64,000 nucleotides of DNA from a virus. The notes under the pieces are model-generated. The model ran no database searches. It saw nothing but the letters and a program-made list of their open reading frames with translations, and was not told the DNA's origin. Position numbers and translations under genes: made by a program. Positions within the stretch are counted from its first letter, which is position 1. Each line of letters opens with the position of its first letter. Below, one piece after another: positions 14,370 to 57,471 of this stretch. Location of the stretch: positions 69,874 through 133,873 of the IMG/VR virus record IMGVR_UViG_3300021399_000007; one strand, given 5' to 3'.

Positions 14370-15158
14370 ATGTTTTGTTTAGATTATTATCCTTCTCAAA
14401 AGTATCTATAGGACGCGGATGAATTTAAAATTAAATATCGTCCATCCGACCGCACATTAGAAGATTTCTTAAATAAATATATTAACAAATCTATCATTAT
14501 AGATGTATCAGATTCTTTTGAGTAGGTTGATGCACAGTTATTAAAAGGATTATCTGATAAATATCAAAATGTTAAGATTATTTTTAATTTTAATAAAAAA
14601 GATTATTTATCAAGAGCCGAAAAATATAACATTCCACATTTTTTTACCAATCCAATTACTTCAATAGATCAATTGTGGGGATTGATAAAATATAATCCAA
14701 CTGATATGTATATATGTAGTGAATTAGGTTTTTCATTAGATAAAATTAGTAGACTGTTACATGAAAATAACATTAAAGTTAGGGTTTTTCCAAATGTTTG
14801 TCAATCAACTTTTTTTTCAGAAATTCCTAGCATAAAAACATTTTTTATTAGACCAGAAGATATTCCCGCATATAGTTAGTATGTAGATGTTTTTGAATTA
14901 GTCACAAATGAAAAAACTCAACGAATTTTGTTTAAGATTTATAAACAAAATAAATGGATTGGACAATTAAAAGATATTATTCCTACTTTTAAAGATTAGC
15001 TTGATAATAAATATTTATTAAAAAATTTTGGAGAACTTAGAAGTAAATGCGGCAAGCGGTGTATGTACACCTTTGGCGGCTGTAATATATGTGATAGATT
15101 CATAGAAATTGTAAATCTTATTGAAGAAAATAAAAATGCGTCAAAAAATTAGGATTGA
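14370..15158 (+). CDS. Hypothetical protein (~262 aa) with 5 in-frame TAG codons; C-terminal CGKRCMYTFGGCNICDRF Cys cluster
   Basis: ATG 14370 after GCATAGGAGGATAAACA; same frame as track fragment 14673-14879; TAGs near 14409, 14511, 14877, 15000, 15150; ends TGA 15156-15158. Confidence 0.45.
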
Positions 15159-16015: not shown

Positions 16016-16086
16016 AGGGCATTAGCTCAGTGGGAGAGCGCGCGTCTTATAAACGCGTGAGGGTAGTTCAATTCTACCATGCCCTA
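16016..16086 (+). tRNA. tRNA-Ile (anticodon TAT)
   Basis: AGGGCAT/ATGCCCT acceptor, D-stem GCTC/GAGC, anticodon stem CGCGT/ACGCG, loop CTTATAA, T-arm GGTAG-TTCAATT-CTACC. Confidence 0.75.
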
Positions 16087-16114
16087 TTATCTGATTTAAA
16101 GAATTTCTTTTTGA

Positions 16115-16165
16115 TTTTTTTAAAAAAATATTATATAATATTTATATGATAAAGATAGAAAAAGA
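16115..16165 (+). promoter_or_regulatory. Middle-class promoter motif (upstream of sigma factor gene)
   Basis: tttttttaaaaaaatattaTATAATATTTATATGATAAAGatagaaaaag. Confidence 0.55.
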
Positions 16166-16178
16166 AAGGAAATTGCAT

Positions 16179-17093
16179 ATGACAGAGATTATGATTGATG
16201 CACTTGATCTTGATGAAGATATGGAATTTGATCAAGAGAATGAAACAATTATAGAACAGCCTGATGCGGTTGTTACAAGTTCTGTAAAAATGTATTTACG
16301 AGAAATTGGCAAGTATAATCTTCTGTCAAGAGAGGAAGAAATAGAACTGGCGGAAGCCGCCCTTAAAGGCGATAAGGACGCGAAAGAAGCTCTTGTTAAT
16401 CACAATTTACGTTTGGTAGTTTCTGTTGCTAAACACTATATGGGGCGGGGACTTACTCTTCTTGATCTGATTCAGGAAGGAAATGTAGGTTTGATTAAGG
16501 CAGTTGATAAGTATGATGTATCTAAGGGCTTTAAATTTTCTACGTATGCTACCTATTGGATTAAGCAGGCAATTTCTCGTGCAGTAATGGACCAGGCTCG
16601 AAATATTCGTATTCCTGTTCATATTATCGAAATGATGAGTAATATTAAAAAGACTGAACGTGAATTTCAGCAGAAAAATGGACGGGAGCCGAAAAAAGAA
16701 GAAGTCGCCGCAATATTAAACATTGATTTGAGTAAGATTAAAGAGATATATGCTTGGATGAAAGATACTACTTCTCTTGATATTGTAGTTGGTGACGATG
16801 AAGATGTTACTGTAGGATCTTTTATTGAAGATGAATCTGTACCAAATGAGTTTGTTACTGTTGAAGAAGACGATCGCAATGTTGCTATTCGTAATATTCT
16901 TGATACATTGAATGAACGTGAAAAAATAATTATTACACATCGTTTTGGAATTGGTTTAGATCGTGCGGAAACTCTTGATGAAATTGGCAAGAAATTAAAA
17001 CTTAGTCGAGAGAGAGTCCGCCAGATTGAAGAGGGCGCATTAAGAAAATTGCGAAATCCGCGCCGTGCAAATTTACTTAAAGAATTTTTCTAA
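16179..17093 (+). CDS. RNA polymerase sigma factor, sigma-70 family (regions 1.2-4, no region 1.1)
   Basis: [22 protein letters not shown] (1.2/2.1), [41 protein letters not shown] (2.2-2.4), [11 protein letters not shown] (3), [27 protein letters not shown] (4.2 HTH); ATG 16179 after AAAGGAAATTGCAT. Confidence 0.85.
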
Positions 17094-17159
17094 AGTTTGG
17101 ACATGATTATTTAAATGTATTTATGTATTTTTAAATACAAGTACAAACCTAAAAAGTTG

Positions 17160-17205
17160 ATTTTTAATAAAAATTTTGATATAATATATATATAAAATAA
17201 AGACA
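17160..17205 (+). promoter_or_regulatory. Middle-class promoter motif driving tRNA-Asn
   Basis: tttttaataaaaattttgaTATAATATATATATAAAATAAAGac. Confidence 0.5.
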
Positions 17206-17355
17206 GCATAACAGCAAAAGTGTAAATTCTTAAAAAAATAAACAAGTCTTTGGAATGTGCTATTTTGTAAAAAGAGCTAAAGTTTATAGTTGTTCTAATT
17301 TGGTAAGCTGCCCTGCCGTGGGAATAGTAGAAAAGGAACTTGCTGTCTTGCATTA

Positions 17356-17427
17356 GGGTGAGTAGCCTAATGGTTAGGCAGTTGCCTGTTAAGCAACCTT
17401 ACGCAGGTTCAATTCCTGCCTTACCCG
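17356..17427 (+). tRNA. tRNA-Asn (anticodon GTT)
   Basis: GGGTGAG/CTTACCC acceptor (one G-U), anticodon stem GTTGC/GCAAC loop CTGTTAA, T-arm GCAGG-TTCAATT-CCTGC. Confidence 0.75.
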
Positions 17428-17589
17428 TTAATTATGTTTAATAAAGACCGTATTTCAGCAAAATACCCTTTCTGAACATAGGAATATTGATAAGGATCGG
17501 CTAATAACTGACGGAGTAGATTTAGCAAGTGAGGGAATTTTGTAACTCCAAATATTAAACTAAAAACCTCATTACGGTCTTGCTTTAAT

Positions 17590-17640
17590 TGAAAATTTTA
17601 AAAAAATATATTATAATATATATAGAAAGTTAAAAAGGAG
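17590..17640 (+). promoter_or_regulatory. Middle-class promoter motif driving tRNA-Lys
   Basis: attttaaaaaaatatatTATAATATATATAGAAAGTTAAAAAGG. Confidence 0.5.
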
Positions 17641-17677
17641 TTAATTTTATGAAAAGTGATAAACCTCTTAAACATTA

Positions 17678-17750
17678 GCGCCATTAGCTCAGATGGAAGA
17701 GCACTTGACTTTTAATCAAGGAGTCTCGGGTTCGAGTCCCGAATGGCGCA
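17678..17750 (+). tRNA. tRNA-Lys (anticodon TTT)
   Basis: GCGCCAT/ATGGCGC acceptor, D GCTC/GAGC, anticodon stem CTTGA/TCAAG loop CTTTTAA, T-arm TCGGG-TTCGAGT-CCCGA. Confidence 0.8.
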
Positions 17751-17908
17751 TTTAGTGTGATCTATCCCTCGATACCACTGTCCAAAAAGTGTAAAGCGTA
17801 ATGGTAGGGAGTCGTCAAAACAGGGTTTTAATATTTTTCTGAGGGCAGAGACGAATTAAATCTAAACAGGCAGAGAAAAATATATCTTTTATAATAATTT
17901 AATAAAGG

Positions 17909-18097
17909 ATGGTGAAAATTATGATATATATTGTTCATTATTTTGATGATAAACATAAGCAGCACATGACCTTTGTTAAAACTTATAAAGATGTTGAATT
18001 TATAAAAGATCGTTTTGGAAGTATCACAGTCGAAACATTAAAAGTAAAAGAGTATCCATACATAGAATATAAAATGGCAATGGCGATTGAGCAATAG
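17909..18097 (+). CDS. Hypothetical small protein (62 aa)
   Basis: Track ORF between tRNA genes. Confidence 0.4.
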   Translation: MVKIMIYIVHYFDDKHKQHMTFVKTYKDVEFIKDRFGSITVETLKVKEYPYIEYKMAMAIEQ

Positions 18098-18370
18098 TGT
18101 ACATAAAACTCAAAGAGTCCACCACACTGCGGCGGTCGGTAGAGAGAGACCATAGCAGACTACCTTACGGAAGTCATGATCCGTGAATTTAGGCTATATA
18201 AACGTCTGGGGAGCCTACGAAATGGACAAAGCCATTTTTATATAAATTTGTTGAATCTTTCGGCTAAGTGAGTAATTTATTAAAAAATTAGCTAATATAG
18301 GAATTTTTGAAATAAATGAAAACTGTCAACAAGGTGGGACAGGCAGAGAAAGAACATATACCCACATTTT

Positions 18371-18442
18371 GGTCTTATGGTCTAAAGGTTATGATAATGG
18401 ACTGTCTATCCATGGATCTGGGTTCGATTCCCAGTAAGATCG
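18371..18442 (+). tRNA. tRNA-Asp-like (anticodon GTC) with atypical loop (T37) and weak D-stem
   Basis: GGTCTTA/TAAGATC acceptor, anticodon stem ATGGA/TCCAT loop CTGTCTA, T-arm CTGGG-TTCGATT-CCCAG. Confidence 0.5.
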
Positions 18443-18455
18443 TTTTATTTTTTAA

Positions 18456-18978
18456 GGGTTGTTATACCGTAGATAGTAGCGGGCCTGACTGATTCCAATA
18501 GGAGATTTGATATGAATGAAATTAACAGAAAGTAGTTGGGTAGATTAGGACTAAGTATGGCTATTAATTATTTTACAATTAATGGTTATACAATATCTAT
18601 TCCAATGAATGATACTCAGTGGTATGACTTGGTGATAGAGAAAGATAATAAGTTTTATACTGTCCAATGTAAAGCTACAGCAACTCAAGATAAAACAATA
18701 GATTTTAGATCTACTGGTGGAACTAAAGGAGTTGCTTATGATAATCTTCTTAATCATCCTGAGCTTGATTATTTATTTTGTGTTGATAATGAATTAAATA
18801 TGTGGAATATTCCTGTAAAAGATATAGTTCAAGTTGGAAATTCTAATCAAATTAGACTTCGATTAGAACCAAATAAAAATAATCAAGGATTTCAATCTTA
18901 TCAATATCGAGTTCAATTCTCGAATGGAGTATAAATCAGGTGTCTTAGACTCGGGTGGTGCGACTCCATCACAACCCA
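18456..18978 (+). tRNA. Split tRNA (Ile-like, anticodon GAT if canonical; long variable arm) interrupted between positions 36/37 by a ~440-nt ORF-bearing insert
   Basis: 5' part GGGTTGT..CCTGA-CTGAT (18456-18493); 3' part AA-TCAGG-[GTC-TTA-GAC variable hairpin]-GGTGG-TGCGACT-CCATC-ACAACCC-A (18934-18978); acceptor and anticodon stems complementary across the insert. Confidence 0.3.
18512..18934 (+). CDS. PD-(D/E)XK-type homing-endonuclease-like protein (I-Ssp6803I-like architecture), 1 in-frame TAG
   Basis: MNEINRK[TAG]LGRLGL...YDLVIEKDNKFYTVQCKAT (D...QxK); paralogous to ORFs at 19538 and 21293; track ORF 18536-18934 is the post-TAG part. Confidence 0.5.
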
Positions 18979-18983
18979 TTTTT

Positions 18984-19057
18984 CGCCCGATAGTGGAGTG
19001 GTTTAACACAGCGGTCTCTAAAACCGCGGATCCTGGGTTCGAATCCCAGTCGGGTGA
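18984..19057 (+). tRNA. Amber suppressor tRNA (anticodon CTA, reads UAG); short variable loop (not Leu/Ser/Tyr type)
   Basis: CGCCCGA/TCGGGTG acceptor (G2-U71), D-stem GTGG/ACAC with GG in loop, anticodon stem GCGGT/ACCGC, loop C-T-CTA-A-A (anticodon 19018-19020), T-arm CTGGG-TTCGAAT-CCCAG, discriminator A. Confidence 0.8.
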
Positions 19058-19063
19058 TATATC

Positions 19064-19136
19064 GCGGGGTAGAGCAGTTCGGTAGCTCGTCAGATTCATA
19101 TTCTGAAGGTCGTGGGTTCAAATCCCACCCGCCGCA
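19064..19136 (+). tRNA. tRNA-Met/Ile2-type (anticodon CAT)
   Basis: D-arm GAGC-AGTTCGGTA-GCTC, anticodon stem TCAGA/TCTGA loop TTCATAT, T-arm GTGGG-TTCAAAT-CCCAC; acceptor CGCGGGG vs CCGCCGC pairs imperfectly. Confidence 0.55.
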
Positions 19137-19474
19137 ATTCAAAGCACATATATCCGCGCAGATATATGTTTTGTGCTGAGAAGTTTGTTTTCTACTTTTG
19201 TTCTTAAAATCAAAGAGGGTGACTTTAGATATTCAATAAGAATATCTCCATGCTTCTGGTGACAGCGGTCGTCAATGAGTTCATGTCCTTAATGAGCGAT
19301 TCCCCTACGAGGCGCAAAAAAGTAGAGGGGTTACGAGTCTACTAGCTACTATACTCGTGAGTAGCAAATATGCGGGGGCCACGATACCGTGTGGTGTAAA
19401 ATCGGTAGCATACTGAATAATCAATTCAGAGATCTAAAGTAGCGTATTAGCACGGTGGGCGTGTAGCCGCATTT
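19137..19474 (+). ncRNA. Structured non-coding RNA region (several helices; segment TTCAGAGATCTAAAG resembles a group I P7/R element)
   Basis: CCCCTAC...GTAGAGGGG, GAGTCTACTAGCTACTATACTCGTGAGTAG pairings; no ORF. Confidence 0.25.
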
Positions 19475-20327
19475 GCCTCTATCCGCTAATGGTAGGCGAA
19501 GTGATTTGTTTGCTAACTTTATTAAAAGGTCATATAAGTGAATGAAACTAAACAAAAAGGTTTAATTACGGAAATTTAGTGTGAACTTGCTTTTTCTAAA
19601 TTAGGAATTTTACTTTCTAAACCTATAGTAGAAGATAGTCGATATGATTATTTAGCTGATATAAACGGAAAGTTTTTACGCATCCAATGTAAAACTTCTT
19701 CTATTTCAGAAGATAATAGTTATATAGAATTTGCTACAAGATCTTGTCGATCTAATACTAAAGAAAATTCCAGCAGGAATTATACTAAAGAAGAAATTGA
19801 TTATTTTTATACATGTTATAAAGATAAATCTTATTTAGTTCCCGTTGAAGAGTGTTCTACTACAAAAAAATTAAGATTTCTTCCTCCCAAAAATGGGCAA
19901 ATAGATAAAACTTCATTTGCTAAAGATTATGAATTAAAAAATATTTTATAGAAAAAAGAAAATTTTTTAAATTTTCAAATACATTAGGTAAATATTATAA
20001 ATTCTAGTAAAGAAAATATTTGTAAAGAATGTGGAAAACCCATTTCTAAAACAGCCATATTATGTAATAGTTGCAGAGGACTGAAAGACAGAACTGTAAA
20101 GCGTCCTTTAAGAGAAGAATTAAAAGAATTAATTCGAACTACTTCTTTTACATAGATCGGTAGAAAATATAATATAACTGATAATGCTATTAGAAAATGG
20201 TGTGATTATTATAATTTACCACGAACTAAAAAAGATATAAAAAACTATTCTGAAGAAGAATGGAAAGGAATTTAATAAAGCAAGGCAATCAAATCACTCA
20301 ATCCCCGTTCGAATCGGGGTGGAGGCT
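19475..20327 (+). tRNA. Split tRNA-Thr (anticodon TGT) interrupted between 36/37 by a 780-nt insert carrying a homing-endonuclease-like gene
   Basis: 5' part GCCTCTA-TC-CGCT-AATGGTA-GGCG-A-AGTGA-TTTGT (19475-19509); 3' part AA-TCACT-CAAT-CCCCG-TTCGAAT-CGGGG-TGGAGGC-T (20292-20327); acceptor pairs 7/7 with one G-U, anticodon stem AGTGA/TCACT. Confidence 0.4.
19538..20275 (+). CDS. Homing-endonuclease-like protein: N-terminal PD-(D/E)XK nuclease domain, CxxC..CxxC ribbon, C-terminal NUMOD-like HTH; 4 in-frame TAG codons
   Basis: GTG/ATG start 19538/19542; VNETKQKGLITEI[TAG]CELAF...YDYLADINGKFLRIQCK...PVEECSTTKKLRFLPPKNGQI...NIL[TAG]KKENFLNFQIH[TAG]VNIINSSKENICKECGKPISKTAILCNSC...SFT[TAG]IGRKYNITDNAIRKWCDYYNLP...; ends TAA 20273-20275. 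Confidence 0.5.
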
Positions 20328-20436
20328 TAAAATCACTTACAGCAAAAATTGTTCAGTAGTCAAAAGGTTAAGACATTAATTTTTAAGATTAAGTAATGCT
20401 GGTTCGATTCCAGCCTGAGTTGAGTGATTTGTTTTT

Positions 20437-20520
20437 GCGGGCGTGGCGGAATAGGCAGACGCACGGGACTTAAAATCCCGAGGACATGAGTCCGTGTGGG
20501 TTCAACTCCCACCGCCCGCA
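20437..20520 (+). tRNA. tRNA-Leu (anticodon TAA), type II
   Basis: GCGGGCG/CGCCCGC acceptor, anticodon stem CGGGA/TCCCG loop CTTAAAA, variable hairpin GGACATGAGTCC, T-arm GTGGG-TTCAACT-CCCAC. Confidence 0.8.
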
Positions 20521-20693
20521 TTAATAAATATATTTGGATAGTTTGGAATCTATCGTCGCACTTTATTATTGGTTGAGTATAAGTGCGACAAAACCCAACC
20601 AAAGGGCAAATATATTATATATAAAAGTTTTGCAAAACTTATTAGAATTGCCCAATAGCAAATTATTAATGGAAGATGGGCATTAATTACAAT

Positions 20694-20767
20694 TTGATAG
20701 GTAGCTCAATTGGTAGAGCGGCGGCGCGTTAAGCCGTGTGTTGGAGATTCGAGTTCTCCCCTATCAA
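20694..20767 (+). tRNA. tRNA-Asn-like (anticodon GTT) with non-canonical anticodon loop GCGTTAA (C at position 33)
   Basis: TGATAGG/CCTATCA acceptor, D GCTC-AATTGGTA-GAGC, anticodon stem GCGGC/GCCGT, T-arm GGAGA-TTCGAGT-TCTCC. Confidence 0.5.
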
Positions 20768-20773
20768 CTATAT

Positions 20774-20858
20774 GGTGTAGTACCTCAGTGGGGAGGAGGC
20801 GCGGTCCTGAAAACCGTCGCTCCGAGAGGGGCTGAAGGTTCGAATCCTTCCTGCACCG
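20774..20858 (+). tRNA. tRNA-Ser (anticodon TGA), type II, loop CCTGAAA
   Basis: GGTGTAG/CTGCACC acceptor, 3-bp D-stem, anticodon stem GCGGT/ACCGT, variable hairpin GCTCC-GAGA-GGGGC, T-arm GAAGG-TTCGAAT-CCTTC. Confidence 0.7.
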
Positions 20859-20862
20859 CTAT

Positions 20863-20951
20863 TGGATGGGTGGCAGAGTTGGTTGAATGCGGCACCCTGC
20901 TAAGGTGTTAGTCACTTCGGTGGCTCGCGAGTTCGAATCTCGCCTCATCCG
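20863..20951 (+). tRNA. tRNA-Ser (anticodon GCT), type II
   Basis: GGATGGG/CTCATCC acceptor, anticodon stem GCACC/GGTGT loop CTGCTAA, variable hairpin GTCAC-TTCG-GTGGC, T-arm GCGAG-TTCGAAT-CTCGC. Confidence 0.75.
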
Positions 20952-20957
20952 CTATAT

Positions 20958-21034
20958 GGCTCTGAGGGAAAACAGATTGATCTGCCTGCCTGTCACGCAG
21001 GAGATAGCGGGTTCGAGTCCCGCCAGAGTCGCCA
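20958..21034 (+). tRNA. tRNA-Asp (anticodon GTC), encoded CCA
   Basis: GGCTCTG/CAGAGTC acceptor, anticodon arm CCTGC-CTGTCAC-GCAGG identical to E. coli tRNA-Asp, T-arm GCGGG-TTCGAGT-CCCGC, G-CCA 3' end; D-arm divergent. Confidence 0.7.
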
Positions 21035-21228
21035 TTTGGGGTTGATTCTCACCCTACCACCGAGAATCCCGAAGTTGCTGGTTGGTGAATGTAACCGTTA
21101 TGCTGGTATTAGGGGTTAATAAATCCAGTTGTTCTATCAGGAGATCAAGAAACCTGATCATCATGGCATGGATAGCCTGAGGGTTGGACCCGACCCATCT
21201 TGTTGTAAAGATTGGTTATCAGGGCATA

Positions 21229-21780
21229 GGGGGTCATAGCTCAGTTGGGAGAGCGCATCCCTTGCTTGAAAAACTTATATTTTTAAAATATTATGGAAAC
21301 TAAACAACTTGGAAATTTAACTTAGTTACAATGTATTACTCGTTTTTATGAATTAGGATATTCAGTATCAATACCTTATGGAGATAGTGAAAAATATGAT
21401 ATGATACTTGATATTAATGGAAAATTATATAAACTTCAAGCAAAACATGCTAAAGAATTTTATACAGAAGATAATCAATTATCATATATAAAGATAAAAA
21501 CTTCTTGGCAATCTGGATATACTAAACAAAGTCAATATCATACAAATAAGTATTCTAAAAATGAAATTGATTTTTTTGTTACATACTTTCAAGGTAAAAA
21601 TTATTTAATTCCAGTAGAAGAATGCTCAACTGAAAAAATATTAAGAATTTTACCTCCAAAAAATGGACAAATAAAAGGAATATCTTTTTTAGAAAACTAT
21701 ATTGATGAGGAGGTTATTAAAAAATTATAAGTATTATCAGGTAAAGGATGAGGTCGAGAGTTCGATTCTCTCTGGCTCCA
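21229..21780 (+). tRNA. Split tRNA-Ala (anticodon TGC, G3-U70 present) interrupted between 36/37 by a ~478-nt insert carrying a homing-endonuclease-like gene; CCA encoded
   Basis: 5' part GGGGGTC-AT-AGCTC-AGTTGGGA-GAGC-G-CATCC-CTTGC (21229-21265); 3' part AA-GGATG-AGGTC-GAGAG-TTCGATT-CTCTC-TGGCTCC-A-CCA (21744-21783); anticodon stem CATCC/GGATG perfect. Confidence 0.5.
21293..21730 (+). CDS. PD-(D/E)XK-type homing-endonuclease-like protein, 1 in-frame TAG
   Basis: METKQLGNLT[TAG]LQCITRFYELGYSVSIPYGDSEKYDMILDINGKLYKLQAKHA...PVEECSTEKILRILPPKNGQI...; track ORF 21401-21730 is the post-TAG part. Confidence 0.5.
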
Positions 21781-21921
21781 CCATTGCGGCATCTGGAACT
21801 ATGTATTTAGTTTTAACCACGCCAAAAGCAAGAAGGATTGGATTCGCGAATACAGATGAGACTTCTTGTAAAGACCCTCTGGCTTGATAGTTACTTCGAG
21901 AAGTATAGGAACTATCAATAG

Positions 21922-21997
21922 ACTCGATTAACTCAGCTGGGAGAGTGCGACTCTTACAAAGTCGAAGTCGTTGGTTCGAGTCCAACATCGAGTACCA
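21922..21997 (+). tRNA. tRNA-Val (anticodon TAC), encoded CCA
   Basis: ACTCGAT/ATCGAGT acceptor, D ACTC-AGCTGGGA-GAGT, anticodon stem CGACT/AGTCG loop CTTACAA, T-arm GTTGG-TTCGAGT-CCAAC, A-CCA. Confidence 0.8.
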
Positions 21998-22120
21998 TCT
22001 GCGGGGCCGGCGTATAAATGGTCCTACCACCCGACTCGTAGTGAACACGGAACGCTGAAAGGTCTTGGGGAACTCCAGGGTAAGATACTCTGCAAGGGAG
22101 GTTGTGCTCCCTACTTTTAA

Positions 22121-22192
22121 CGGGGCGTAGCGTAGCGGCGACGCGCTAGTTTTGGGAACTAGATCAGGTGGGTTCAACTCCCGCCGCCCCGA
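22121..22192 (+). tRNA. tRNA-Pro (anticodon TGG)
   Basis: CGGGGCG/CGCCCCG acceptor, D GCGT/ACGC, anticodon arm CTAGT-TTTGGGA-ACTAG, T-arm GTGGG-TTCAACT-CCCGC. Confidence 0.75.
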
Positions 22193-25310: not shown

Positions 25311-25346
25311 GAAGGATATGCAAAAATTGCATATCCTTCTTTTTTT
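25311..25346 (+). terminator. Rho-independent terminator
   Basis: AAGGATATGCA-aaaat-TGCATATCCTT + CTTTTTTTG. Confidence 0.6.
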
Positions 25347-25570: not shown

Positions 25571-26050
25571 ATGATAGCATTACTTTAGCACTATTCTTTA
25601 TCTGATATATTAATCTTCTTGATTTTTCTTGCTCTAGGTATTAAAAGTTTAATTTCTTTTTTTGACTGGGTTTATGGATATATAAAAAGAGCTTTTAATA
25701 TAGAATACTCTAAAAAGAGTGAAAAATAGCAAATTGAGTAGCAGTTACAGCAAGGTAGCGAAACCATAGCAATTTTAACCGCAAATCAATAGGCAACTGA
25801 TAAAGTTCTTTTAGATTTATCCGCAAAAATTGATATGTTAATTGATTCAGATAAAGATGCAATAAAGTCTTATATAACAAAAGAACATCATCATTTCTGT
25901 TATTAGGTTGGATAGATAGACGACTTTAGTTTGGATTGTCTTGAAAAACGTTATCAACATTATACAGATGAAGGCGGAAATTCATTTATTGAACACTTTA
26001 TGTGTGATTTAAGAGCTTTGCCTAAATAGGGTTCTTTTAATGGCAACTAA
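25571..26050 (+). CDS. Late small membrane protein (159 aa) with 7 in-frame TAG codons
   Basis: SD CAAAAGGAGGGACTATAATT-ATG; N-terminal TM ILIFLIFLALGIKSLISFF; Q-rich if TAG=Gln; ends TAA 26048-26050. Confidence 0.4.
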
Positions 26051-26080: not shown

Positions 26081-27955
26081 ATGGCATTGATGTTAAACAC
26101 TTTATATCCACCTATTATGATGGATGTAATCCCTGGTTTTATAAGAACATCAACATGTAGAATATATTTTTCTATATCCGATTATAATTCTGCCAAAGAC
26201 ATAGCAAATGTTCAAGTTGCATTAACAAATGTAAAAACTAACACTTCTGCATTGAATACTGATTTGTACCCCGCAGAAATTAAATTAACTGAATTACTTT
26301 ATGATGACCAAAAGTAGGACGATTATTGTTATTATATAACAATAAGTCCTGCTGATTTAGCGGGCGGGGAATTTTTATTAAATCAATATTATAAAATTCA
26401 ATTACGCTTTACATCAAAAGATGCAGATAGTGTTAGTTTAACTGGAGTTCAACAAATTGCTACTTGGTTAAATAATAATCTTATGTTCTTTTCTTAGTGG
26501 TCACGTGCGGGAATCATTAGAGGGATTTCAAGACCAACGCTTTATATTGATTATTTAGATGATGAGGATGAAGAAGAGGAAGAAGAAAGTGAAAATATTT
26601 CATTATCCGCCCCATTATCAAAAATTACTGGTAGATTAACTTTTGCAGATGAAGGCGAATTAGACTATTTAGCTTCTTATAATGTTAAAGTTTATTTAAG
26701 CAAGCAAGATAATAAATTAATTTTTGATAGCGGTATTCAACATCCAATAGAAGAAAATGAGATTGATTGTAACTTATTATGTGATTTATAGGATTAGCGG
26801 CTGTATATGATAAAAATTAGTTATACTACAAACTATGCTTATAGTAAATAGGAAAACTATATAATACAAGTACGAGTCGAGAGCCAAGACTTAAATCCAT
26901 TCAATCTAACAATCACTCCAACAAGAAATGAAGAGGATGGTTATATAAATCTTCATATTACGATGGATAAAACTAAAGATTTTTCTGATAAACAATTATT
27001 AATTAGAAGAATATCTTCAAAAGATAATTTCTTAATATGGGAAAATTTATATGCTATAGATTAGAGCTTTTCCACATTTGATTGGCAAGACTTATCTGTA
27101 GAAAGCGGGATTTGGTATAAATATGCGTTATATGTAGTAGATTTAAATAAAACTATTTTATATAACCCTATAGAAACAGATCCAATATTGTGCATTTTTG
27201 AAGATATATTTTTAGTAAGTGATAATATTCAATTAAGATTACAATTTAATCCTTCCATAACAAGTTTTAAATATAATACAACTGAATCTCAACAAGTTAC
27301 TTTAGGAGGAAAATTTCCTTATATTAGAAGAAATGGAAATAATTATTATAGAACCTTTTCTATTGGCGGTCTTATTAGTTCTTTAATGGATGAAACTGAT
27401 TGGTATGATTCTTATATTCATCCGCCGCATCCAATATAGGGAGAAGAAGAACAGAAAGAAGAAATCACTTTACCGCATATCAGATTTACTTCTAAATAGG
27501 ATAAATATAAAGATTCTTATGATTTATATCAACAGTATGAATCAGATAAAAATATCTCTAATTATCTTAATCCAATATATGAAAGATTTTTTAGAGAAAC
27601 AGTATATGATTTCTTTTATAAAAATAGTGTAAAATTATTTAAATCTCCAACAGAAGGTAATATATTAGTTAAATTAACCAATATTAATTTTGAACCTCAA
27701 GCTCAATTAGGACGCGTATTATATTCATTTACCGCAACCGCAGTTTAGATAGATGAACCAACTTTTGAAAATTATAAAAAATACAAAATCTTTCCTGATG
27801 ATATATTTGAATATGTTACTGAATCTCCTGCTTTAGAGATCGAATTTGGTACAGCCACAATGGTGCTGGTTATAAATGCAAATGGTGCAAGTCAAAATGG
27901 AAATCAGAATTGGGCATTGCATTTAGAGCCTTATCCTATTAAAGGAGGAGGTTAA
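26081..27955 (+). CDS. Late structural protein (~624 aa, baseplate/tail-type) with ~10 in-frame TAG codons
   Basis: Track fragments 26081-26317, 27188-27439 in one frame joined only by TAG; SD AAAGGAGAATTAAAAAATG; abuts next structural gene. Confidence 0.45.
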
Positions 27956-27957
27956 TA

Positions 27958-29982
27958 ATGCAAACATATCCATATTTAAATGATTTAGCTTTTTTAAGAG
28001 AACTTGATCTATCAAAAGTAAAAGAACAATTTGTGAGAATTAACGTTTTATCTTTTAAAGATGAAAAACCAATAGACCAAATTGAGGGGGATGTAGTAAG
28101 CGGCAATATTACAATAGATGGAAACTCAGCGATGCGGCGAACCGCAAATTTATCTATTGTGGTGAAAAAAGATGAGTATTCTAATAGAGATATTAGAAAA
28201 ATTTTAACTATAAATAAAAAAGTATAGTTATTAATAGGTTTTACTAACACTACTGATAAATATGAACAATATCCAATTTTATGGTTTCCACAAGGAATTT
28301 ATGTAATTATTACTCCTAATATTACTTATAATAATAATGGTATCAATATTTCATTAACATTACATGATAAAATGGCCTTGCTAAATGGAGAATGCGGCGG
28401 AACTCTACCTGCATCTATTACATTTACTGAAATAGAAGATGTTGATGAGAATGGCGAAAGACAAATTTCTAATCCTACTATATATCAAATTATACAAGAA
28501 TTAGTTAATCATTTTGGTGGATAGCAACTTGGAAAAATAATTATTGAACTTGATAAAAAAATAAAAAAGGTAATGCGGTGGACAGGCTCAACACCGCTTT
28601 ACCTATATCAAGAAGCGCTTCCAGATGGTACAATGTATAGTAGTTTTAGTACAAATGAAAATTAGTTAAGAAGGCAAGGAGAAGGGACAATTCAAGAATT
28701 TTAGTACGGATAGGATATAGGTTACATTTTGACTGATTTTATCTATCCACAATAGCTAACTAATAACCCTGGGGAGACCATTGTAAGTGTCTTAGACAAA
28801 ATTAAGAATTGGCTTGGAAATTACGAATATTTTTATGATATTAATGGTAATTTCAGATTCCAAGAGATAAAGAATTATTTGAATAAAACATATGCAACAT
28901 TTTTAATTAATGAAATAAATTCAAATAATTACTTAACTAATTATGCAAATGGAAAATCTGTTTATACTTTTGAAGATTCTGATATTATTCAGTCATATTC
29001 AAACTCCCCGCAATATCAACAAATAAAAAATGATTTTGTTGTTTGGGGTAAAAGAACTACAACAGAAGGAAAATAGATTCCTATCCGCTACCATTTAGCT
29101 ATTGATAAAAAACCTGCGGTTGGAAATTAGTATAAAGTATTTTTCTATACTGATCCTGATGATAACATTTTAAAAGCTAAAAAACCTTTAGAATTTGCTA
29201 CAAGAAGTTAGTTCCCAGAAACCGGAGATGTATGTCAATATTATTATGCGGCAGACACTGGTTTTATATATAAATGGGACGCGAGTGTACAAAGTTATGC
29301 CACGACCCCATATATAATTGAAACAATAGAAGCAAATGATTATAGAACTTAGCTTTATATGTCTGGCGTTGCTAGTTAGCCGTTTGGTTTAGATAGTAAT
29401 TATTATTACACAGAATTAAAAAATGAATGGCCTAAATTATATGATATGCGGCAAGGAAAATTCTTTGATGAAATACTAGATCAGCCCAGTAACATGGATT
29501 TCTTTTTAGATTTTATAGATACCTCTACCGCTATTTCAGAATTTAGTATAGAAAATATTGGTAGACGTACCCTTACAATATCAAATGATGCAATAAACTG
29601 TATTTTCTAGCCTGATAACCCTGATATAGTTATTATTGAAGCAAACAGTGAAGGCGCAGATGATCTTCGAGAATAGTGTTAGCATAGACGACAAGAATAT
29701 TCTCAGGTAACATCAGACATATATTCAAAGCTAGTTACTGGCGGAGTTTTAAGGTCTGCTTATGAAGAAATAAGAACAGAACTTTATCAATATACTGATT
29801 ATAATGAACAAGTCACATTAACCACTTTACCAATTTATTATCTTGAACCTAATGTGCGGATAACAATTAAAAATTAGTAGAGCGGAATTGATGGAGATTA
29901 CATGATAAAAACAATTTCATTACCATTAGATGTTAATGGAATGATGAATTTATCTTGTACAAAAGCACTTGAAAGAATTTAA
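27958..29982 (+). CDS. Late structural protein (~674 aa, tail/baseplate) with ~20 in-frame TAG codons
   Basis: Track fragments 27958-28227 and 28879-29076 same frame; continuous to TAA 29980-29982 then terminator. Confidence 0.45.
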
Positions 29983-30029
29983 CAAAAAAAAATGGCGATG
30001 ATATAAAAATATCATCGCCATTTTTTTTA
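29983..30029. terminator. Bidirectional rho-independent terminator between convergent late operons
   Basis: A9-AATGGCGATGATAT-aaaaat-ATATCATCGCCATT-T8. Confidence 0.65.
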
Positions 30030-32057
30030 TGGTTTTAATCGGATAATATATCCAACTTTATAGTTCGGCCACGAGAGTGGACCAATCCATTTTACGAAAT
30101 GAGCACCTTCGCCCTTTTCTTTGCAGAAGGCATGTCCAGAATCAAATGACAAACCATTACCAAAGTAAATACATGTATGATTGATAGCTACAAAAGTAAG
30201 AATGTCACCAGGACAAAGTTTTCCTTCGTTCATAAGCTGCTTAGGAGTCTTATTGCCTACTTTGATTAAGTCTGCATACTTGCGGAGATCAGCCTACGCG
30301 TGACTATTTAACCAGCGGATGCCGCCTCCTTTTTGTCCATACCAGCTGCATGCAGATGCAGGAAGCCCAGACTATTTCATTGCAAAGCCAACACCGCCCA
30401 TACAGTTTGTATATAACTTATTAGCTTTTCTTGTTTTCCAGAATGTACTTTCACTTACATGTCCGCTGTTGTAATATCTCCAGTCTTTACCAGCTTTTAT
30501 GTCATCTACTAACCATTGATTTAACCGAGCACATGCCGCAAGTAATTTTTGCACTCTATTTAATTTTGGTTTATATACAACTGTTTTTGGATTTTTTAAG
30601 TCATAAACTCTAAATCCCCAATTTTGATTAGCCTTATTTTTAGCGTTACTTAAGTATTGATAAGCACCAAGTTGGTATTGAGATTCAGACCATCTTCTAC
30701 GAACGACATATCTATCTACTATTGTTGCGGCGGGAGTCGTTGTTACGGGCGCTTGGACTGGTGCCGCCGTAACCGCCTTCACCTATGGATAAATTTGATT
30801 ACCATTCTAATCATATACTTTTAATCCTTTAGCTTTTGCTCTTGCTATTGCATTAGCTTTAATTTCGTAAGCATTATCTTGGTTAATATATTTTCCATTT
30901 TTATAGTCTTGTGCAACTCTATACCAGACAGTTTTTGGCTGTGGGACTGGTGCCGTCGCCCCCGCTTCTACATCTAATTTTGCTAAATTATTTTCTTTAA
31001 TAATACGAAGCACCTTCTCTTCATAATTAGGATCAGTGCAATACCCCTATGGATTACTAGCTGTTCCAGTTCCAATTCTAATTGCATGAATAACCGCTCC
31101 AGGATCTGTCATACCTTTAATGCGATTATATTTATAACCTTTATTATTTTTTACATGCAAAAGGAACATCTAATAATCTTCAATGCAGTTTTTATAGTCC
31201 TTATAAACTCTAAAGTTATCATTTTTATAAATTAATTTACCATTAACATATTCAGGAGTCATTTTAGAAAAACTTGTACCATTCCAAACTGTATAATTAG
31301 ACCAACTACTATTGATTAAATCAACTTTCATTCCAAGAAGATTATTTCGTTTTGTTAATTCAATAGCATCAGATCCTAATCCATAACCATTCTAGAGGCA
31401 GCACTGTGCGGCGACCACTGATGGTAAAATTTTTGTTTGTTTATAAAGATCTACACAGATCTTAGATACTTTATTAATAAAGTCTTCTTTGCTTTGAGGG
31501 ATACCAGAAGCTGCGGTTGTTGACGGTGTTGTACCTGCATTTCCGCCCTTCACCCTCTCAAGAAATTCATTCCAAGTCCAAGATGTTTTATATTTATTAT
31601 TATGAACATATGGAGCTGGGCAGACTTTATTTACAATATCATAATGTCTTAATACATGGTCTATTGGGATTTTTAAGTCCTTCATTAATTTTTGAACAAG
31701 CCATACCGCAGCTTCTTGTGTCTCTTTTGTAAAATACCAATATGGGTCACTTGCTAATCCTTTGTTGCCATCACAGTGACAACATAATTCAATGCTAATT
31801 GTATTAGCATTTCTTGCGTATGGATGCTTTTGAGCATATATACCAGCTGTACCGACTGCCCACACAATTGCATCATGGGAACATCTTTGGAAAATCGTTC
31901 CATCCCAATAAATTGTATAGTGGGCACCAGTACCATTTTTTGATAATTCATAATTTTGACCATCTACTCCTAAATAGTGAATGGCTATATATTCATGTGT
32001 ATTTCCAAATTTTGGCACATATACTTCTGAAATTTTATTTACTATTTTATATGCCAT
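30027..32057 (-). CDS. Multidomain endolysin (676 aa): N-acetylmuramoyl-L-alanine amidase (Amidase_2) + glucosaminidase + cell-wall-binding repeats + NlpC/P60; 7 in-frame TAG codons
   Basis: Four track fragments (31392-32057, 30807-31013, 30372-30782, 30027-30233) share one frame, separated only by TAG; motifs AIHY..ISIELCCH..HYDIVNKVCPAP; NGYGLGSDAIELTKRNNLLG; repeats YRVAQDYKNGKYINQDNAYEIKANAIARAKAKG / YVVRRRWSESQYQLGAYQYLSNAKNKA; NlpC/P60 TNCMGGVGF...HTCIYFGNG; SD GGAGAAAAAAT-ATG. Confidence 0.65.
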
Positions 32058-41825: not shown

Positions 41826-42317
41826 ATGAAAATATTATCTATTGATGCTTCTACTAAATCATCTGGTTGGTGCATAGGATAGGATGGAAGATTTGAAAAA
41901 TCTGGATGCGTTGCAGCGGCCTCTAAAAATGTAAATGCACGAATTATTAAAATTCGTGATGAAATATCTAAAATAATTAAAGAAAATAATATAGATAAAA
42001 TTGTTATGTAGTAGGTGCGGCCTGAGTACAATTCTCATACTAATAAAGTATTAATGTGGTTACAGGCTGCGATTGTTCTCGCCGCTTATGAAATTAATCC
42101 AAAAATTTAGTGTGAATTTATTGGAGCTACAGAATGGCGGGCCGCATTAAAAATAAAACAGGGACGCGGCATAAAGAGAGAAATGCTCAAACCGCAAGAT
42201 ATAAAATACGTAGAAGATAAATACTCAATTAAAGTCCAAAATGATGACTAGGCTGATGCAATTTGCATATTTGATGCCTATTGGGAAAAAAATGATAATA
42301 AAATTAATTGGGAATAA
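41826..42317 (+). CDS. RuvC-like Holliday junction resolvase (163 aa), 5 in-frame TAG codons
   Basis: MKILSIDASTKSSGWCIG (RuvC motif I), ...ADAICIFDAYW (C-terminal D-A-x-A motif); TAGs at codons 19, 62, 63, 95, 142. Confidence 0.5.
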
Positions 42318-42359: not shown

Positions 42360-42773
42360 TTATTCTTTATTACATAAAATAGATTGTAATTGCATTATTT
42401 CTCTTGGTGTGAGGATATCATATTTATCGTCACTATAATCAAATATAGAAATATCATCTACTGTAGATAATTTAATTTCTACTTCTATATTTAATAATTC
42501 ATTAATTTCTGCAATATAATTACTCATGTGTTCATCATCAACCTGAGGAATTCCTGTTGCAGTATAAATATATTCACCTTTGTCATTTTTAATAATAAAA
42601 TCTTTGTAAGTTTCAATGATTTTATTCAACATTTTGGTATAGCAATCTACATCACCTTGAATATTTAATGCATTTTTAACAATTAAATATGAGATTTTTT
42701 GTGGCAATTTTTTTGTAGAATATTTATTTAATATTTGCATCATACTAAGTAGTTCTATATTTTTAATTTTCAT
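42360..42773 (-). CDS. Hypothetical protein (137 aa)
   Basis: Track ORF; ATG overlaps end of tail spike gene. Confidence 0.5.
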   Translation of the reverse strand: MKIKNIELLSMMQILNKYSTKKLPQKISYLIVKNALNIQGDVDCYTKMLNKIIETYKDFIIKNDKGEYIYTATGIPQVDDEHMSNYIAEINELLNIEVEIKLSTVDDISIFDYSDDKYDILTPREIMQLQSILCNKE

Positions 42774-45700
42774 ATATAATATCCTCTAATTCTTTTATTC
42801 TTTTTTGTTGTTTTTGTAATACTGCAATAATAGGAGCAATAAATTGATCATATGACAAACCCCATGATAATAAATTATCATCAACCTATTCACCAAAATA
42901 AGGTTCAACTTCTTCATCAGGATCATTACTTTTATAACTTGCAGCTACTACTGATAAATTTTGATTTAAATTTTTACACACTTTTGCAACATCTTGTGCA
43001 ATAAATCCCATACGAGTTCTTCGATGATCTCCCTTTTTCCACATAAAAGAAATTGGCTATAAAGACATTATAAAATCTTCTGCAAAATCAATCTATCCTA
43101 AAATATCTTTTAATTTTCTATCTGAGGATGTATCTACATTTAAACAAAAAACATTATTAAATCTATAACCGTCCTGAGTGTCTCTTCCTAAATCTACTAC
43201 TGCTGTATCATGTGTAGGGACTAATCGTGGACTTTGTCCAGATATTCTAATTTTAGTTTTTTGTGTATTAAATTCTATATGACCAGAGTATTTATCAGAT
43301 TTGTTCATTACTCCAGTACTTAATCTTACATCTCCATATGCATCCTATATTTCAATATCATGTTCCGTTTGATCGTCATTATATCCAACATATAAACTTA
43401 ATCCTAAATAACTAGTTAGCTGGGTAGCGCCACCAGATCCTTTTAAATTTAAACTACTCTTTGGTGTATATAATTGAATATTACCTGTTGAGGGGCGTCC
43501 TGGTGAATCAGAACCAACCATTACATCCAAATTACCATTTACCCATATCGTTGAAGACTGATCGCAAAACATCCCCCATTTATGGCTAGAAAAACTCCAA
43601 GGAGTTGAATTAGAATAATCAAGTGTAGGAGGTACATATCCAAGATAAATTCCTTGTGTACTACTTGATGTAGAAGTTTGATCATTTCTTATTCCTATGT
43701 AAGACCCATGATTTGTAATTGCATAAAATGAATTTTTATATAAATCTGGTGTACTAGAAACATACAATTTATCAGGTCTTATTTCAACTAAAGAGCCATA
43801 TGTTAATCCTCCATATGATTGAGGTGGAGTTGTAGTTAAATCTGGATTTGGATTATAATCTTCAAAACTAAAACCACCTATATGACCAGTACCATCTGCA
43901 TTAAGAGAAAAAGCATTATTACTTGACTTTATTCCATTATTTAATAAATCTAATCCACCAATTTTACCTGCAGATGCATAAATAGTTCCATATATAATTG
44001 CATTACTAGCAGTTAATAATCCATTACTAGAAACAACAAAAGTGGTTAATGAAGAATCTTCCTCCCAATATGTAGCATTTGGCGGCTTATTGCTTTGTGC
44101 AGAAGTGTGTGCTAAAATACATTTATAAATTTTTCCATTGTCACGAATAATATCATTTATAGCATATATGGCATCTTCCTACCAAAGCGGCAATGGCCCA
44201 CCAACCACGCCATTTTCTTTAATGTACCCGCTCAGTTCATTTTGTAAGCCATCAATTTTTTCAATAGGAATAGTTGCATTATTCCCCAAATTTAAAGTAG
44301 TTGCAGTAATAACACCAGATATATTTGCTTCTTCGGCATGTAATATTCCTTGTGGATTAACTGAGAACTTACCATTTCCAAATCTGATTTCAGGAGCAGT
44401 TAAATTAATTAATAATCCAGCTCCAGCCTATCCTGATGATGTATAATCAATAGGTAATCCATCCTATCCATAATTAGTAGATTTCCAAAAATTATGACTA
44501 TAAATCATAGCTTTTTGTGCGATTGGATCTATAATAATTTGACCATTATCTGCTTTACCAAAAATAGCAGAGCCATTCTAACTATTTAAAAAGAATGTGC
44601 GGGCGCCACTATTATACCCAAATAAACCAGACTATGGCTCACTTTTATCTGGAGACCGCACCTATCCCATAAGCACGCCAGTAAAACTATGATCATTTTC
44701 TTTTCGTCCTGCGCCGACCTGTGGACTAAGAATAAAACCGCCTTCTTGATCGACTTGAACGCTATTACCATCCCATTCATTTATATGAGATAAGCCATAT
44801 TTATTTAATAAAAAATGAATAGGAACATTTATTTTACCAATTATTACATTATTCTGTTTATATATACAACAAACTGCATTATTGACACATAATCCATCAT
44901 ATTTTGATTTTGGACGAATTATACATTGATTTTTTTCATATCCGTTATTTGGAAGAATCTCTAATAAAAGAGAATTAATTGCCGCTCCATCTTTAGATAA
45001 ATAATTTCCAATAACAGATGGTTCATAAGAAATTGCATGGATACCAGAAACCAGTGAAATATCTTCCCAAATATTATCAATAAATTCTTCACAAATAAAT
45101 TCAAAAGGACTGGTATCATCATATTGCGGCAAAACGCCATCTGAAGTATACATTACATACCTAAATCCAGTATAATCTTTTAATTTTACTCTATATTTTT
45201 CATTACTAGTCCAAGCTGTTACTATGGGAATTGTGCCATAATAAGTTTTACCTTCCCAATCAATACTACATTTAATAATATTTGCTAAAGGTGTACTTAA
45301 ATTAGAATCTAAATGATCTCCAGTATATTTAATTTGCCCATTATTTGCATTTACTATTTCAAAAGCAGATGCATCAGAGTATGTATTATTATATTTATTT
45401 TTTAACACACTCCAAATGACACTTGAAGGCTGGGTTAAATTGTCTTGAGCAGTATCTGTCATAGAATTACCTTCCCATACCAATTCTCCACTATGCCATA
45501 ATTGTGCCTTAAAAAACTTATAACTATTATTAATAGAAAGTTCAGTTTCTGCGGCGGAAGTTCCTAATCCATAGTTTAAAATATACTTATTTCCAGCTTT
45601 AGTAATCATTGGAGCCAATGGAGGAACGCTCATTGTTGTATTTGGAACTAATTTTACTATATATTCAGTTCCATTTGTACCAGGTTCTCCCTGCTTAGCA

Positions 45701-57100: not shown

Positions 57101-57471
57101 AATTGAACATTTGTATTTAAAATTTGTGTAGCAACGTTATTAAACGCCGCCTGTCCAGCCGCTCCAACCTGAGAAAAAGCCTGTTGGACTTGACTAATAG
57201 AGCTGCCGGAATTTTTTAAAGTCTTATTAAATTGTTCAATATTAAGAGTATTTAATTTCGTATTGAAGGCTTTCTTTAATGCATTTTCTACATTCGTCGC
57301 CTATGTTTTTACTTGTCTTAATGTTTCTGTTGCTGAGGCGGCGTCTGTATTATTAATCTTCATTACATCACTGATTTTTAATTTCTGTATCTATTGCAAT
57401 GAAGATTTTAATTGGTTCAACCCTTCTTTTTGAATGTCAAAACCAACTTGATATTTAATCTGATTCGCCAT
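48115..57471 (-). CDS. Tail tape-measure protein, apparent single ORF of ~3118 aa with ~90 in-frame TAG codons
   Basis: Eleven track fragments from 48115-48714 up to 56440-56625 share one frame; adjacent fragments separated by TAG where checked (e.g. 56440-56442); SD TTAAGGAGATAAAAGGAT-ATG at 57471; TM-like GIPVLMTFGSTLANIFN; Gly-rich block. Confidence 0.5.

Follow-up and report, generated by a model that had tools for sequence, protein, structure and literature searches.

Phage recoding of stop codons is treated as two cases, TAG to glutamine (Gln) and TGA to tryptophan (Trp), a division built into prodigal-gv, Pharokka-gv, and the NCBI tables. In the preprint of Borges et al. (2021), phages with a code unlike that of their host show only these two reassignments, and TGA to glycine also occurs where the host uses that code. 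The same work describes the 'Agate' clade, a group of large Firmicutes phages found in cattle and pigs, in which close relatives have mixed codes. phAss-1 is annotated as TAG=Gln, and isotype predictions for 180 phage suppressor (Sup) tRNAs gave Gln, Trp, isoleucine, and tyrosine, with no glutamate (Glu). For UAG to Glu, our search found eukaryotic cases only and none in phages; subscription papers lay outside this search, and an earlier report is possible. Here, we analyzed a window of 64,000 nucleotides from a phage contig (IMG/VR record IMGVR_UViG_3300021399_000007, positions 69,874 to 133,873; coordinates below are those of the window), which carries a tRNA gene with anticodon CUA at 18984..19057 on the plus strand. 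We consider, with a probability of roughly 0.8, that this CUA tRNA reads UAG as a sense codon and that the codon means Glu.

The CUA tRNA gene can be divided as CGCCCGA-TA-GTGG-AGTGGTTTAA-CAC-A-GCGGT-CTCTAAA-ACCGC-GGATC-CTGGG-TTCGAAT-CCCAG-TCGGGTG-A, and its transcript as CGCCCGA UA GUGG AGUGGUUUAA CAC A GCGGU CUCUAAA ACCGC GGAUC CUGGG UUCGAAU CCCAG UCGGGUG A. An earlier note on this DNA, made from the letters alone, had described a canonical cloverleaf whose D loop contains GG, whose anticodon stem has 5 bp, and whose T arm is standard, and the sequence agrees with it exactly. The 7-bp acceptor stem contains C1-G72, G2.U71, and C3-C5/G68-G70, the D loop (AGUGGUUUA) has 9 nt, U11-A24 is paired, and G13.A22 is a mismatch. 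The anticodon loop C-U-CUA-A-A consists of 7 nt with U33 and a purine at position 37. The variable loop (GGAUC) is 5 nt long, as expected for the class I type proposed in the note, the discriminator base is A73, and CCA is not encoded. ARAGORN, one of the checks suggested there, called a tRNA with anticodon cta at 18983-19058, and the Rfam model RF00005 matched 18984-19057 at 64.7 bits (E = 9e-12; gathering score = 29) over the full model (positions 1-71). A covariance model placing the anticodon elsewhere would have spoken against the note; the Rfam model also puts it at CUA. The minimum-free-energy fold is a cloverleaf as well (-28 kcal/mol). A megablast search of GenBank phages with the tRNA region as query gave no match.

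The label 'tRNA-Pyl' given by ARAGORN, which is merely the name used by that tool for anticodon cta, is the only point in favor of a pyrrolysine tRNA (tRNA-Pyl). In tRNAs of this kind, the D loop is short and lacks GG, the anticodon stem has 6 bp, the variable loop has 3 nt, and pyl genes lie nearby. The D loop with GG, the 5-bp anticodon stem, the 5-nt variable loop, and the TTCGAAT T loop of the CUA tRNA stand against this reading, and no pyl genes were recognised in the window.

In related phage contigs, a CUA tRNA occupies the same place, shortly upstream of tRNA-Met. We aligned 10 distinct orthologues over 78 columns, among which neither the loop CUCUAAA nor the pair U11-A24 varies. When the cloverleaf was laid on these sequences, 99% of the cells were paired, 16 of 20 pairs had changed on both sides, and covariation was seen in all four helices. 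None of 500 shuffles matched this result, and sliding the 3' partners gave pairing of 33-47%. The covariation and its controls therefore indicate that the CUA tRNA represents a working family, neither a chance hairpin nor a decaying copy. With the direct reading of the sequence, ARAGORN, Rfam, and the acceptor and D-arm signature described below, we regard it as almost certainly a functional amber suppressor.

The genome around the tRNA shows where such a suppressor would be used. The window has a G+C content of ~33% and is part of a phage, encoding a tape measure protein, a tail fibre, and a lysin with Amidase_2 and Glucosaminidase domains and having at least 61 relatives in IMG/VR; these are contigs of 110-155 kb in a rumen/gut family. 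The contig corresponds to NODE_477 (67,471 bp) of ENA assembly ERZ12302813. No terminase gene was found in the window. By identity in one baseplate protein, the closest matches among GenBank phages come from an unannotated gut phage (38%), phAss-1 (31%), and the distantly related Enterococcus phages EF1 and VRE9 (26%), which suggests Bacillota hosts. Under the standard code, the longest open reading frames (ORFs) are short. Reading TAG as sense yields ORFs of 3118, 1681, 676, 674, and 624 codons with 84, 24, 7, 16, and 9 TAG, respectively, and a coding density of 0.90, with TAA (60) and TGA (23) as the stops. Reading TGA or TAA as sense gave no comparable gain.

In-frame TAG codons amount to 147 in the 6932 codons of six late genes and to 0 in the 3523 codons of eleven early or other genes, which bears out the proposal of the earlier note that the tRNA serves TAG-rich late genes. 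The first TAG-rich gene downstream of the tRNA array encodes a membrane-anchored protein (25571..26050, plus strand; 159 codons, 7 TAG). It is followed on the plus strand by a tail/baseplate gene (26081..27955; 624 codons, 9 TAG) and a baseplate-like gene with a weak DUF5048 match (27958..29982; 674 codons, 16 TAG). The minus strand carries the lysin gene, with Amidase_2 and GH73 Glucosaminidase domains (30027..32057; 676 codons, 7 TAG), the tail fibre gene (42763..47808; 1681 codons, 24 in-frame TAG), and the tape measure gene (48115..57471; 3118 codons, 84 in-frame TAG). A RuvC-like resolvase gene (41826..42317, plus strand; 163 codons, 5 TAG) contains an adjacent TAG pair at 42009-42014 within its IVM-xx-V motif; no match to the protein was found in the PDB. 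Homology to the relatives runs on through the in-frame TAG codons. Since the 3118-codon frame holds 84 TAG and no TAA or TGA and homology continues through it, these codons are not stops. The readings as tRNA-Pyl, or as true stops in decayed or fragmented genes, were thus rejected on the sequence features of the CUA tRNA and on the long TAG-containing frames, and we give them next to no chance of being right.

The amino acid at TAG was approached by alignment. The baseplate-like gene (674 codons) was aligned at the codon level with 59 relatives, 19 without an in-frame stop, 8 with in-frame TGA, and the rest with in-frame TAG. The in-frame TGA codons of the 8 relatives align with Trp in 59% of cases in this gene. 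The 16 TAG columns of the window are mostly Glu (E), with, for example, E 50 and TAG 8 in one, E 45, D 9, and Q 2 in another, and E 44 in a third. In a wider test, 18 window proteins were compared by tblastn with 61 related loci, and the residues opposite the window's TAG were E 703, K 194, D 190, T 153, and Q 138. An empirical log-likelihood, based on the substitution patterns of the same alignments, placed Glu first and Gln behind by 769 nats, a gap that is inflated since the relatives are not independent, although the ranking is clear. Over 62 TAG columns, the majority residue is E in 29 and Q in 4; in control columns of known residue, E has the majority in 129 of the 209 that are true-E and Q in 63 of the 134 that are true-Q. 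Where one residue reaches at least 70% of a TAG column (n = 13), it is Glu in 9, lysine (Lys) in 3, Trp in 1, and Gln in 0. Glu occupies 43/43, 53/54, 52/52, 20/20, and 15/15 of the aligned residues at the TAG columns 26495, 27746, 28522, 40978, and 38758, respectively, and 46/59 and 44/51 at 28753 and 29350 in the baseplate-like gene. Among the codons opposite TAG in segments of at least 60% identity, GAA (114) and GAG (30) are followed by CAA (23) and CAG (5).

Comparison of two enzymes with curated references from outside the family also favors Glu. In the lysin, the TAG at 31392-31394 falls on the catalytic Glu position of GH73 (AAQCCL-TAG-NGYG against AQAIVESGWG of 7qfu_A), and the Pfam Glucosaminidase score is 72.0 with E at TAG, 68.2 with D, 67.8 with Q, 67.0 with K, and 63.1 with W. 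The Pfam RuvC scores of the resolvase are E 23.6, Q 21.6, D 21.1, K 20.6, and W 14.3, and only E passes the cut-off of 22.2.

These data bear directly on the rival explanation that this is an ordinary code 15 phage, in which the CUA tRNA is charged with Gln and TAG means Gln. That explanation can draw on the published phage TAG reassignments, all of which are to Gln, on the public gene callers, which translate the contig with TAG=Gln, on the second rank of Gln in likelihood, and on the fact that CUA suppressors are classic substrates of glutaminyl-tRNA synthetase (GlnRS) in E. coli. On the other hand, Q is the majority in few TAG columns and no conserved TAG column is Gln, and Gln at the GH73 position would cost the lysin its catalytic acid. 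Code 15 is defined by TAG standing opposite Gln in standard-code homologues; this was not found here, and the phage is set apart from code 15 for that reason. U1-A72 and G73 are also missing from the CUA tRNA, as is the GCC/GGC D stem seen in the tRNA-Gln genes of this phage family, and the same method cleanly sets apart relatives in which TAG does align with Gln. We therefore consider TAG=Gln very unlikely. As judged from the alignments, UAG very probably means Glu in this phage.

The contrast among relatives is clear in a tally made per genome. With the related loci numbered with the prefix L, the fraction of E opposite TAG is 0.30-0.49 in the window, L003-L013, L021, L022, L024, L027, L031, L032, and L038, and the Q fraction in this TAG~Glu group is 0.01-0.06 in nearly all members (0.20 in L004, which has only 5 TAG in the baseplate gene). 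In a TAG~Gln group (L025, L026, L035, L045, L048, L042-44, and L059), Q accounts for 0.27-0.33 and E for 0.01-0.10. A wider gene panel gave the same split, with an E majority at 27 of 63 sites in L013 and a Q majority at 38 of 112 in L048. Since the TAG-recoded relatives separate cleanly into these two groups, the method is able to tell Gln from Glu. The same method assigns Trp to the TGA-recoded relatives L028-30, L033, L034, L037, L040, and L054, and 19 of the loci L001-L061 use the standard code in the gene homologous to 27958-29982. Four code states thus occur in the family: standard, TGA~Trp, TAG~Gln, and TAG~Glu. L057, L058, L060, and L061 contain many TAG without a clear residue assignment. 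Amino-acid composition lends weak support to the Glu/Gln split: for the baseplate gene, the TAG~Gln set is depleted in Gln and the TAG~Glu set is not, and Glu is lower in both. phAss-1 was uninformative as an external control at the 8 TAG columns of the baseplate alignment because of its 31% identity.

Some side observations concern other stop codons in these relatives. tRNA(TCA) genes of 95-96 nt were found in L271 (8913-9007) and L273 (7329-7424); these probably encode opal suppressors and contain an intron or long insert, which would fit the TGA-recoded branch. In L075 (IMGVR_UViG_3300021400_000126), L248, and L268, TAA within tblastn alignments stands mostly opposite Lys (16 of 24 in L075); this is likely to be an artefact that stems from off-frame ORFs where the DNA is rich in A+T. 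ARAGORN also called a tmRNA in L075 at 14830-15107.

A member of the CUA tRNA family is present in every TAG~Glu genome whose array was retrieved, and its body was compared with bacterial tRNAs. The orthologues in L065, L066, L076, L266, and L281 are plainly similar to Gram-positive tRNA-Glu. We scanned one genome per bacterial species, without regard to the anticodon, for the D-arm motif GTCAAGYGGTT(N)AAGAC and obtained 120 loci, almost all from Bacillota; 107 of the 116 tRNAs carrying the strict motif are tRNA-Glu. These tRNA-Glu have G1-C72 (72/85), G2.U71 (66/85), A73 (74/85), a 4-nt variable loop (77/85), and also C3-C5. Acceptor stems were read by parsing anchored on the motif, and the acceptor signature played no part in choosing the loci. 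The signature xGCCC...GGGTxA (G2.U71, C3-C5/G68-G70, A73) occurs in 49 of the 85 tRNA-Glu as against 0 of 490 other tRNAs at the same loci, and the CUA tRNA of the window (CGCCC...GGGUG-A) carries it. Its D arm, GUGG-AGUGGUUUAA-CAC, fits the generalised pattern GUN(R)-A(R)YGGYYU?AA-NAC, which is found in 85/85 tRNA-Glu (by selection), 8/22 tRNA-His, 3/32 tRNA-Gln, and 0 of the others. Of 101 further IMG/VR CUA tRNAs that share the anticodon stem, the Glu signature occurs in only six; all six closely resemble the suppressors of this family, and at least 4 come from contigs already known as relatives. Crude, home-made isotype profiles rank Glu at the top for the orthologues L076 (39.1 bits), L266 (30.7), L066 (28.6), and L281 (24.5). 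Whole-sequence identity to the other tRNAs of the family is not diagnostic, at 0.65-0.72 to many isotypes. Where the earlier note had left Gln, Trp, Glu, and Lys types as possible origins, the comparative evidence selects Glu, and its sequence suggests that the CUA tRNA descends from a Bacillota-type tRNA-Glu.

Several observations weigh against this descent or against Glu as the sole meaning of TAG. The CUA tRNA of the window lacks G1-C72 and the 4-nt variable loop and has C1-G72 and 5 nt instead; the 4-nt loop is retained in L065, L066, L076, L266, and L281, and G1-C72 in some of them. Its anticodon stem is Trp-like, and with the anticodon masked the same crude profiles do not decide between isotypes, at Trp 22.5, Glu 20.9, and His 20.2 bits. 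The majority residue is Lys in 9 of the 62 TAG columns, and one TAG column has a conserved Trp: the TAG at 25913-25915 (plus strand) is opposite Trp in 29 of 40 relatives, and Lys is conserved opposite those at 46756-46758 (14/19), 49558-49560 (11/12), and 49183-49185 (10/12), all on the minus strand. For the TAG~Gln relatives, the suppressor tRNAs were sought and not recovered, which makes the contrast between tRNA type and codon meaning one-sided. When their loci were scanned with Rfam, the 10 kb on either side of the tail module contained no tRNA, a pattern search for CUA tRNAs with a tRNA-Gln body returned 4 contigs, all unrelated, and a search for GGT-CTCTAAA-ACC gave 119 loci, with no TAG~Gln contig among the 80 matches listed. 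No means of countering release factor 1 (RF1) was found. Finally, C34 and A36 replace U34 and C36, strong determinants of the glutamyl-tRNA synthetase (GluRS) of E. coli (PMC9976931).

Some of these points feed a second rival explanation, in which TAG is decoded ambiguously or by another tRNA: the CUA tRNA would carry Trp, Lys, or a mixture, and Glu would be delivered through wobble by a UUA tRNA or by a host tRNA. The undecided isotype scores and the Lys- and Trp-conserved columns are in its favor, as is a second suppressor-like tRNA in the window, overlooked in the earlier note, with the ochre anticodon UUA (20350..20422, plus strand; called by ARAGORN, Rfam 51.3 bits), which has a Glu-like D arm (GTCAAAAGGTTAAGAC) and G2.U71. 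However, the UUA tRNA has 34% G+C, a U1xU72 mismatch at its first pair, and an anticodon stem made entirely of A-U pairs, and it does not take a cloverleaf as its minimum-free-energy fold. This may be a weak gene, or else a pseudogene. The TAG~Glu relatives L011, L021, L022, L013, and others have the CUA tRNA and no UUA tRNA in the retrieved arrays, ARAGORN found no UUA-anticodon tRNA among the related loci scanned, and in the relatives checked, L022 and L065, a tRNA-Thr(TGT) lies at its position. Bacterial tryptophanyl-tRNA synthetase uses G73, and A73 of the CUA tRNA counts against charging with Trp. A single mutation separates TAG from the Trp codon TGG and from the Lys codon AAG, and in the TAG~Gln relatives, too, Lys often stands opposite TAG. 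A degree of ambiguous decoding is conceivable, and as a whole we judge this second explanation unlikely. Recoding of TAA was considered separately and rejected: the conserved genes of the window have no in-frame TAA, and TAA is the main stop (60 of 83 ORFs).

Returning to Glu as the meaning of UAG, we propose a route by which it could be delivered. The phage would have kept a tRNA-Glu body (G2.U71/C3-C5, A73, U11-A24, a three-pair D stem, and an enlarged D loop) and changed the anticodon to CUA. The host GluRS would then charge this tRNA with Glu, with U35, A37, and U11-A24 retained as recognition features. The identity elements of GluRS have been reviewed, as has the relaxed, non-discriminating form of the enzyme, which accepts C or G at position 36 (PMC9976931); the non-discriminating GluRS of hosts without GlnRS may already tolerate variation at this position. 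The bacterial amidotransferase GatCAB depends on a U1-A72 pair, and G1-C72 together with one additional base in the D loop keeps it from acting on tRNA-Glu (PMC2811023). In the CUA tRNA, the first pair is C1-G72 and the D loop is enlarged to 9 nt, so GatCAB would be expected to leave the Glu unamidated, making no Gln, and Glu would be delivered at UAG. We give this GluRS/GatCAB route about even odds. Searches with approximate E. coli sequences as queries found neither a phage GluRS nor a release factor 2, whether in the window itself or across 3 Mb of related loci, which are partial genomes.

The gene layout further suggests timed expression. Early genes lack TAG and would be readable by the uninfected host, while the tail, baseplate, lysis, and some nuclease genes are written with ~21 TAG per 1000 codons. 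Since the CUA tRNA lies in an array with early/middle orientation, running the same way as the TAG-free genes and upstream of the TAG-rich module, it may accumulate first, and the late proteins would be completed only after it has done so. Transcription from middle promoters, as put forward in the earlier note, gains no support from a scan for promoter-like sites, which was near background (55 sites against 41 +/- 6.5 in shuffles), with no strong site directly upstream of the CUA tRNA. The TAG-rich tail genes are set off from the last gene without TAG (23789-25300) by a strong terminator-like hairpin of 13 bp followed by a T run (25311..25339, plus strand).

The array itself, which the earlier note had put at 12 or more tRNAs, comprises 14 tRNA genes at 16016..22192 on the plus strand, 13 called by ARAGORN and 1 by Rfam: Ile-TAT, Asn, Lys, Asp, Sup-CTA, Met, UUA, Leu-TAA, Asn, Ser-TGA, Ser-GCT, Asp, Val, and Pro. 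The fourteenth, missed by ARAGORN, is a tRNA-Asp (GUC) with an atypical D arm (20958-21031, plus strand; Rfam 50.2 bits). tRNA-Met, called by ARAGORN, begins 6 nt downstream of the suppressor (19064..19136, plus strand), and the order Sup-CTA to tRNA-Met is kept in related phages. Compared with the tRNA model, this tRNA-Met has a deletion on the 5' side of its acceptor stem, and G68 is left without a partner. Between tRNA-Met and the UUA tRNA, a PD-(D/E)XK endonuclease gene with 4 in-frame TAG (19538-20275, plus strand; PF11645, E = 1.6e-23) could represent an insertion akin to a homing endonuclease. At the head of the array lies a complete, TAG-free sigma-70 family gene with regions 1.2, 2, 3, and 4 (16146-17090, plus strand), which suggests that the phage redirects the host RNA polymerase and may have a bearing on the timing of tRNA and late-gene expression. 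A conserved, TAG-free gene for a DUF2828/DUF7788 protein (23789-25297, plus strand) adjoins the array. Farther downstream on the plus strand, two TAG-free genes encode a Thg1-like enzyme (59940-60764; tRNA-His guanylyltransferase / 3'-5' polymerase, PF04446, E = 6.7e-30), which could repair or mature tRNA 5' ends, and an 830-aa protein with a major-vault-protein shoulder domain (60819-63308; PF11978).

If UAG means Glu here, current pipelines mistranslate ~2% of the residues of the late proteins, catalytic glutamates included. For the gene at 25571-26050, a public protein collection contains the TAG=Gln product (an exact match in a 14-member cluster), and the TAG=Glu product is absent. The late proteins of the family would then be systematically mistranslated in databases, affecting structure prediction, annotation, and lysin engineering. 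It would also be a third phage reassignment, whose meaning is set by the identity of the phage tRNA, with a tRNA-Glu body escaping the amidotransferase, and the amino acid at a recoded stop would depend on the host synthetase that the phage tRNA exploits. Close phage relatives differing in the amino acid at TAG would offer a natural test bed, and in Gram-positive hosts the CUA tRNA could serve as a natural amber suppressor that inserts Glu.

A phage amber suppressor tRNA is of a known kind, while the meaning TAG=Glu appears to be new for phages. On balance, we think it probable that UAG read as Glu through a tRNA-Glu-derived phage suppressor is a code undescribed in viruses and prokaryotes, and that four code states coexist among relatives with 50-70% protein identity. 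The nearest systems are the code 15 gut phages (crAss-like, Lak, 'Agate', and phAss-1; Borges 2021, Peters et al. 2022, Babkin et al. 2023). Like the window phage, they encode a CUA tRNA in an array, concentrate TAG in structural and lysis genes with none in early genes, have hosts presumed to use the standard code, and include close relatives on different codes. The genome size of 110-155 kb, animal gut source, likely Bacillota hosts, and mixed codes of the family of the window phage also agree with the description of the 'Agate' clade, and phAss-1 is a distant relative, as the identity in its baseplate protein indicates. The difference is that TAG becomes Gln in those phages, whereas here TAG aligns with Glu and the tRNA has tRNA-Glu features.

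With Bacillota tRNA-Glu (UUC/CUC), the CUA tRNA shares G2.U71, C3-C5/G68-G70, A73, U11-A24, U35, and A37, as well as a three-pair D stem, a non-Watson-Crick 13-22 pair, and a D loop in which UU(U)AA comes after GG. It differs in its CUA anticodon, in C1-G72 rather than G1-C72, in the 5-nt variable loop, and in the tRNA-Trp-like anticodon stem. Among eukaryotes, the UAG=Glu codes of peritrich ciliates (table 30) and Blastocrithidia (table 31) likewise use a suppressor derived from tRNA-Glu, and a ciliate with UAA=Lys and UAG=Glu has been described (bioRxiv 10.1101/2022.12.16.520718). These are nuclear codes that apply to the whole genome, usually with UAA changed too, whereas in the window phage only UAG is changed, in part of a phage genome and within a standard-code bacterial host. 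The amber suppressors that Kleina, Normanly, and Miller reportedly made from E. coli tRNA-Glu are said to show that CUA on a tRNA-Glu body can give Glu at UAG, and also to be prone to mischarging with Gln by GlnRS in E. coli. Those suppressors were engineered, whereas the CUA tRNA of the window is natural and conserved in a phage lineage.

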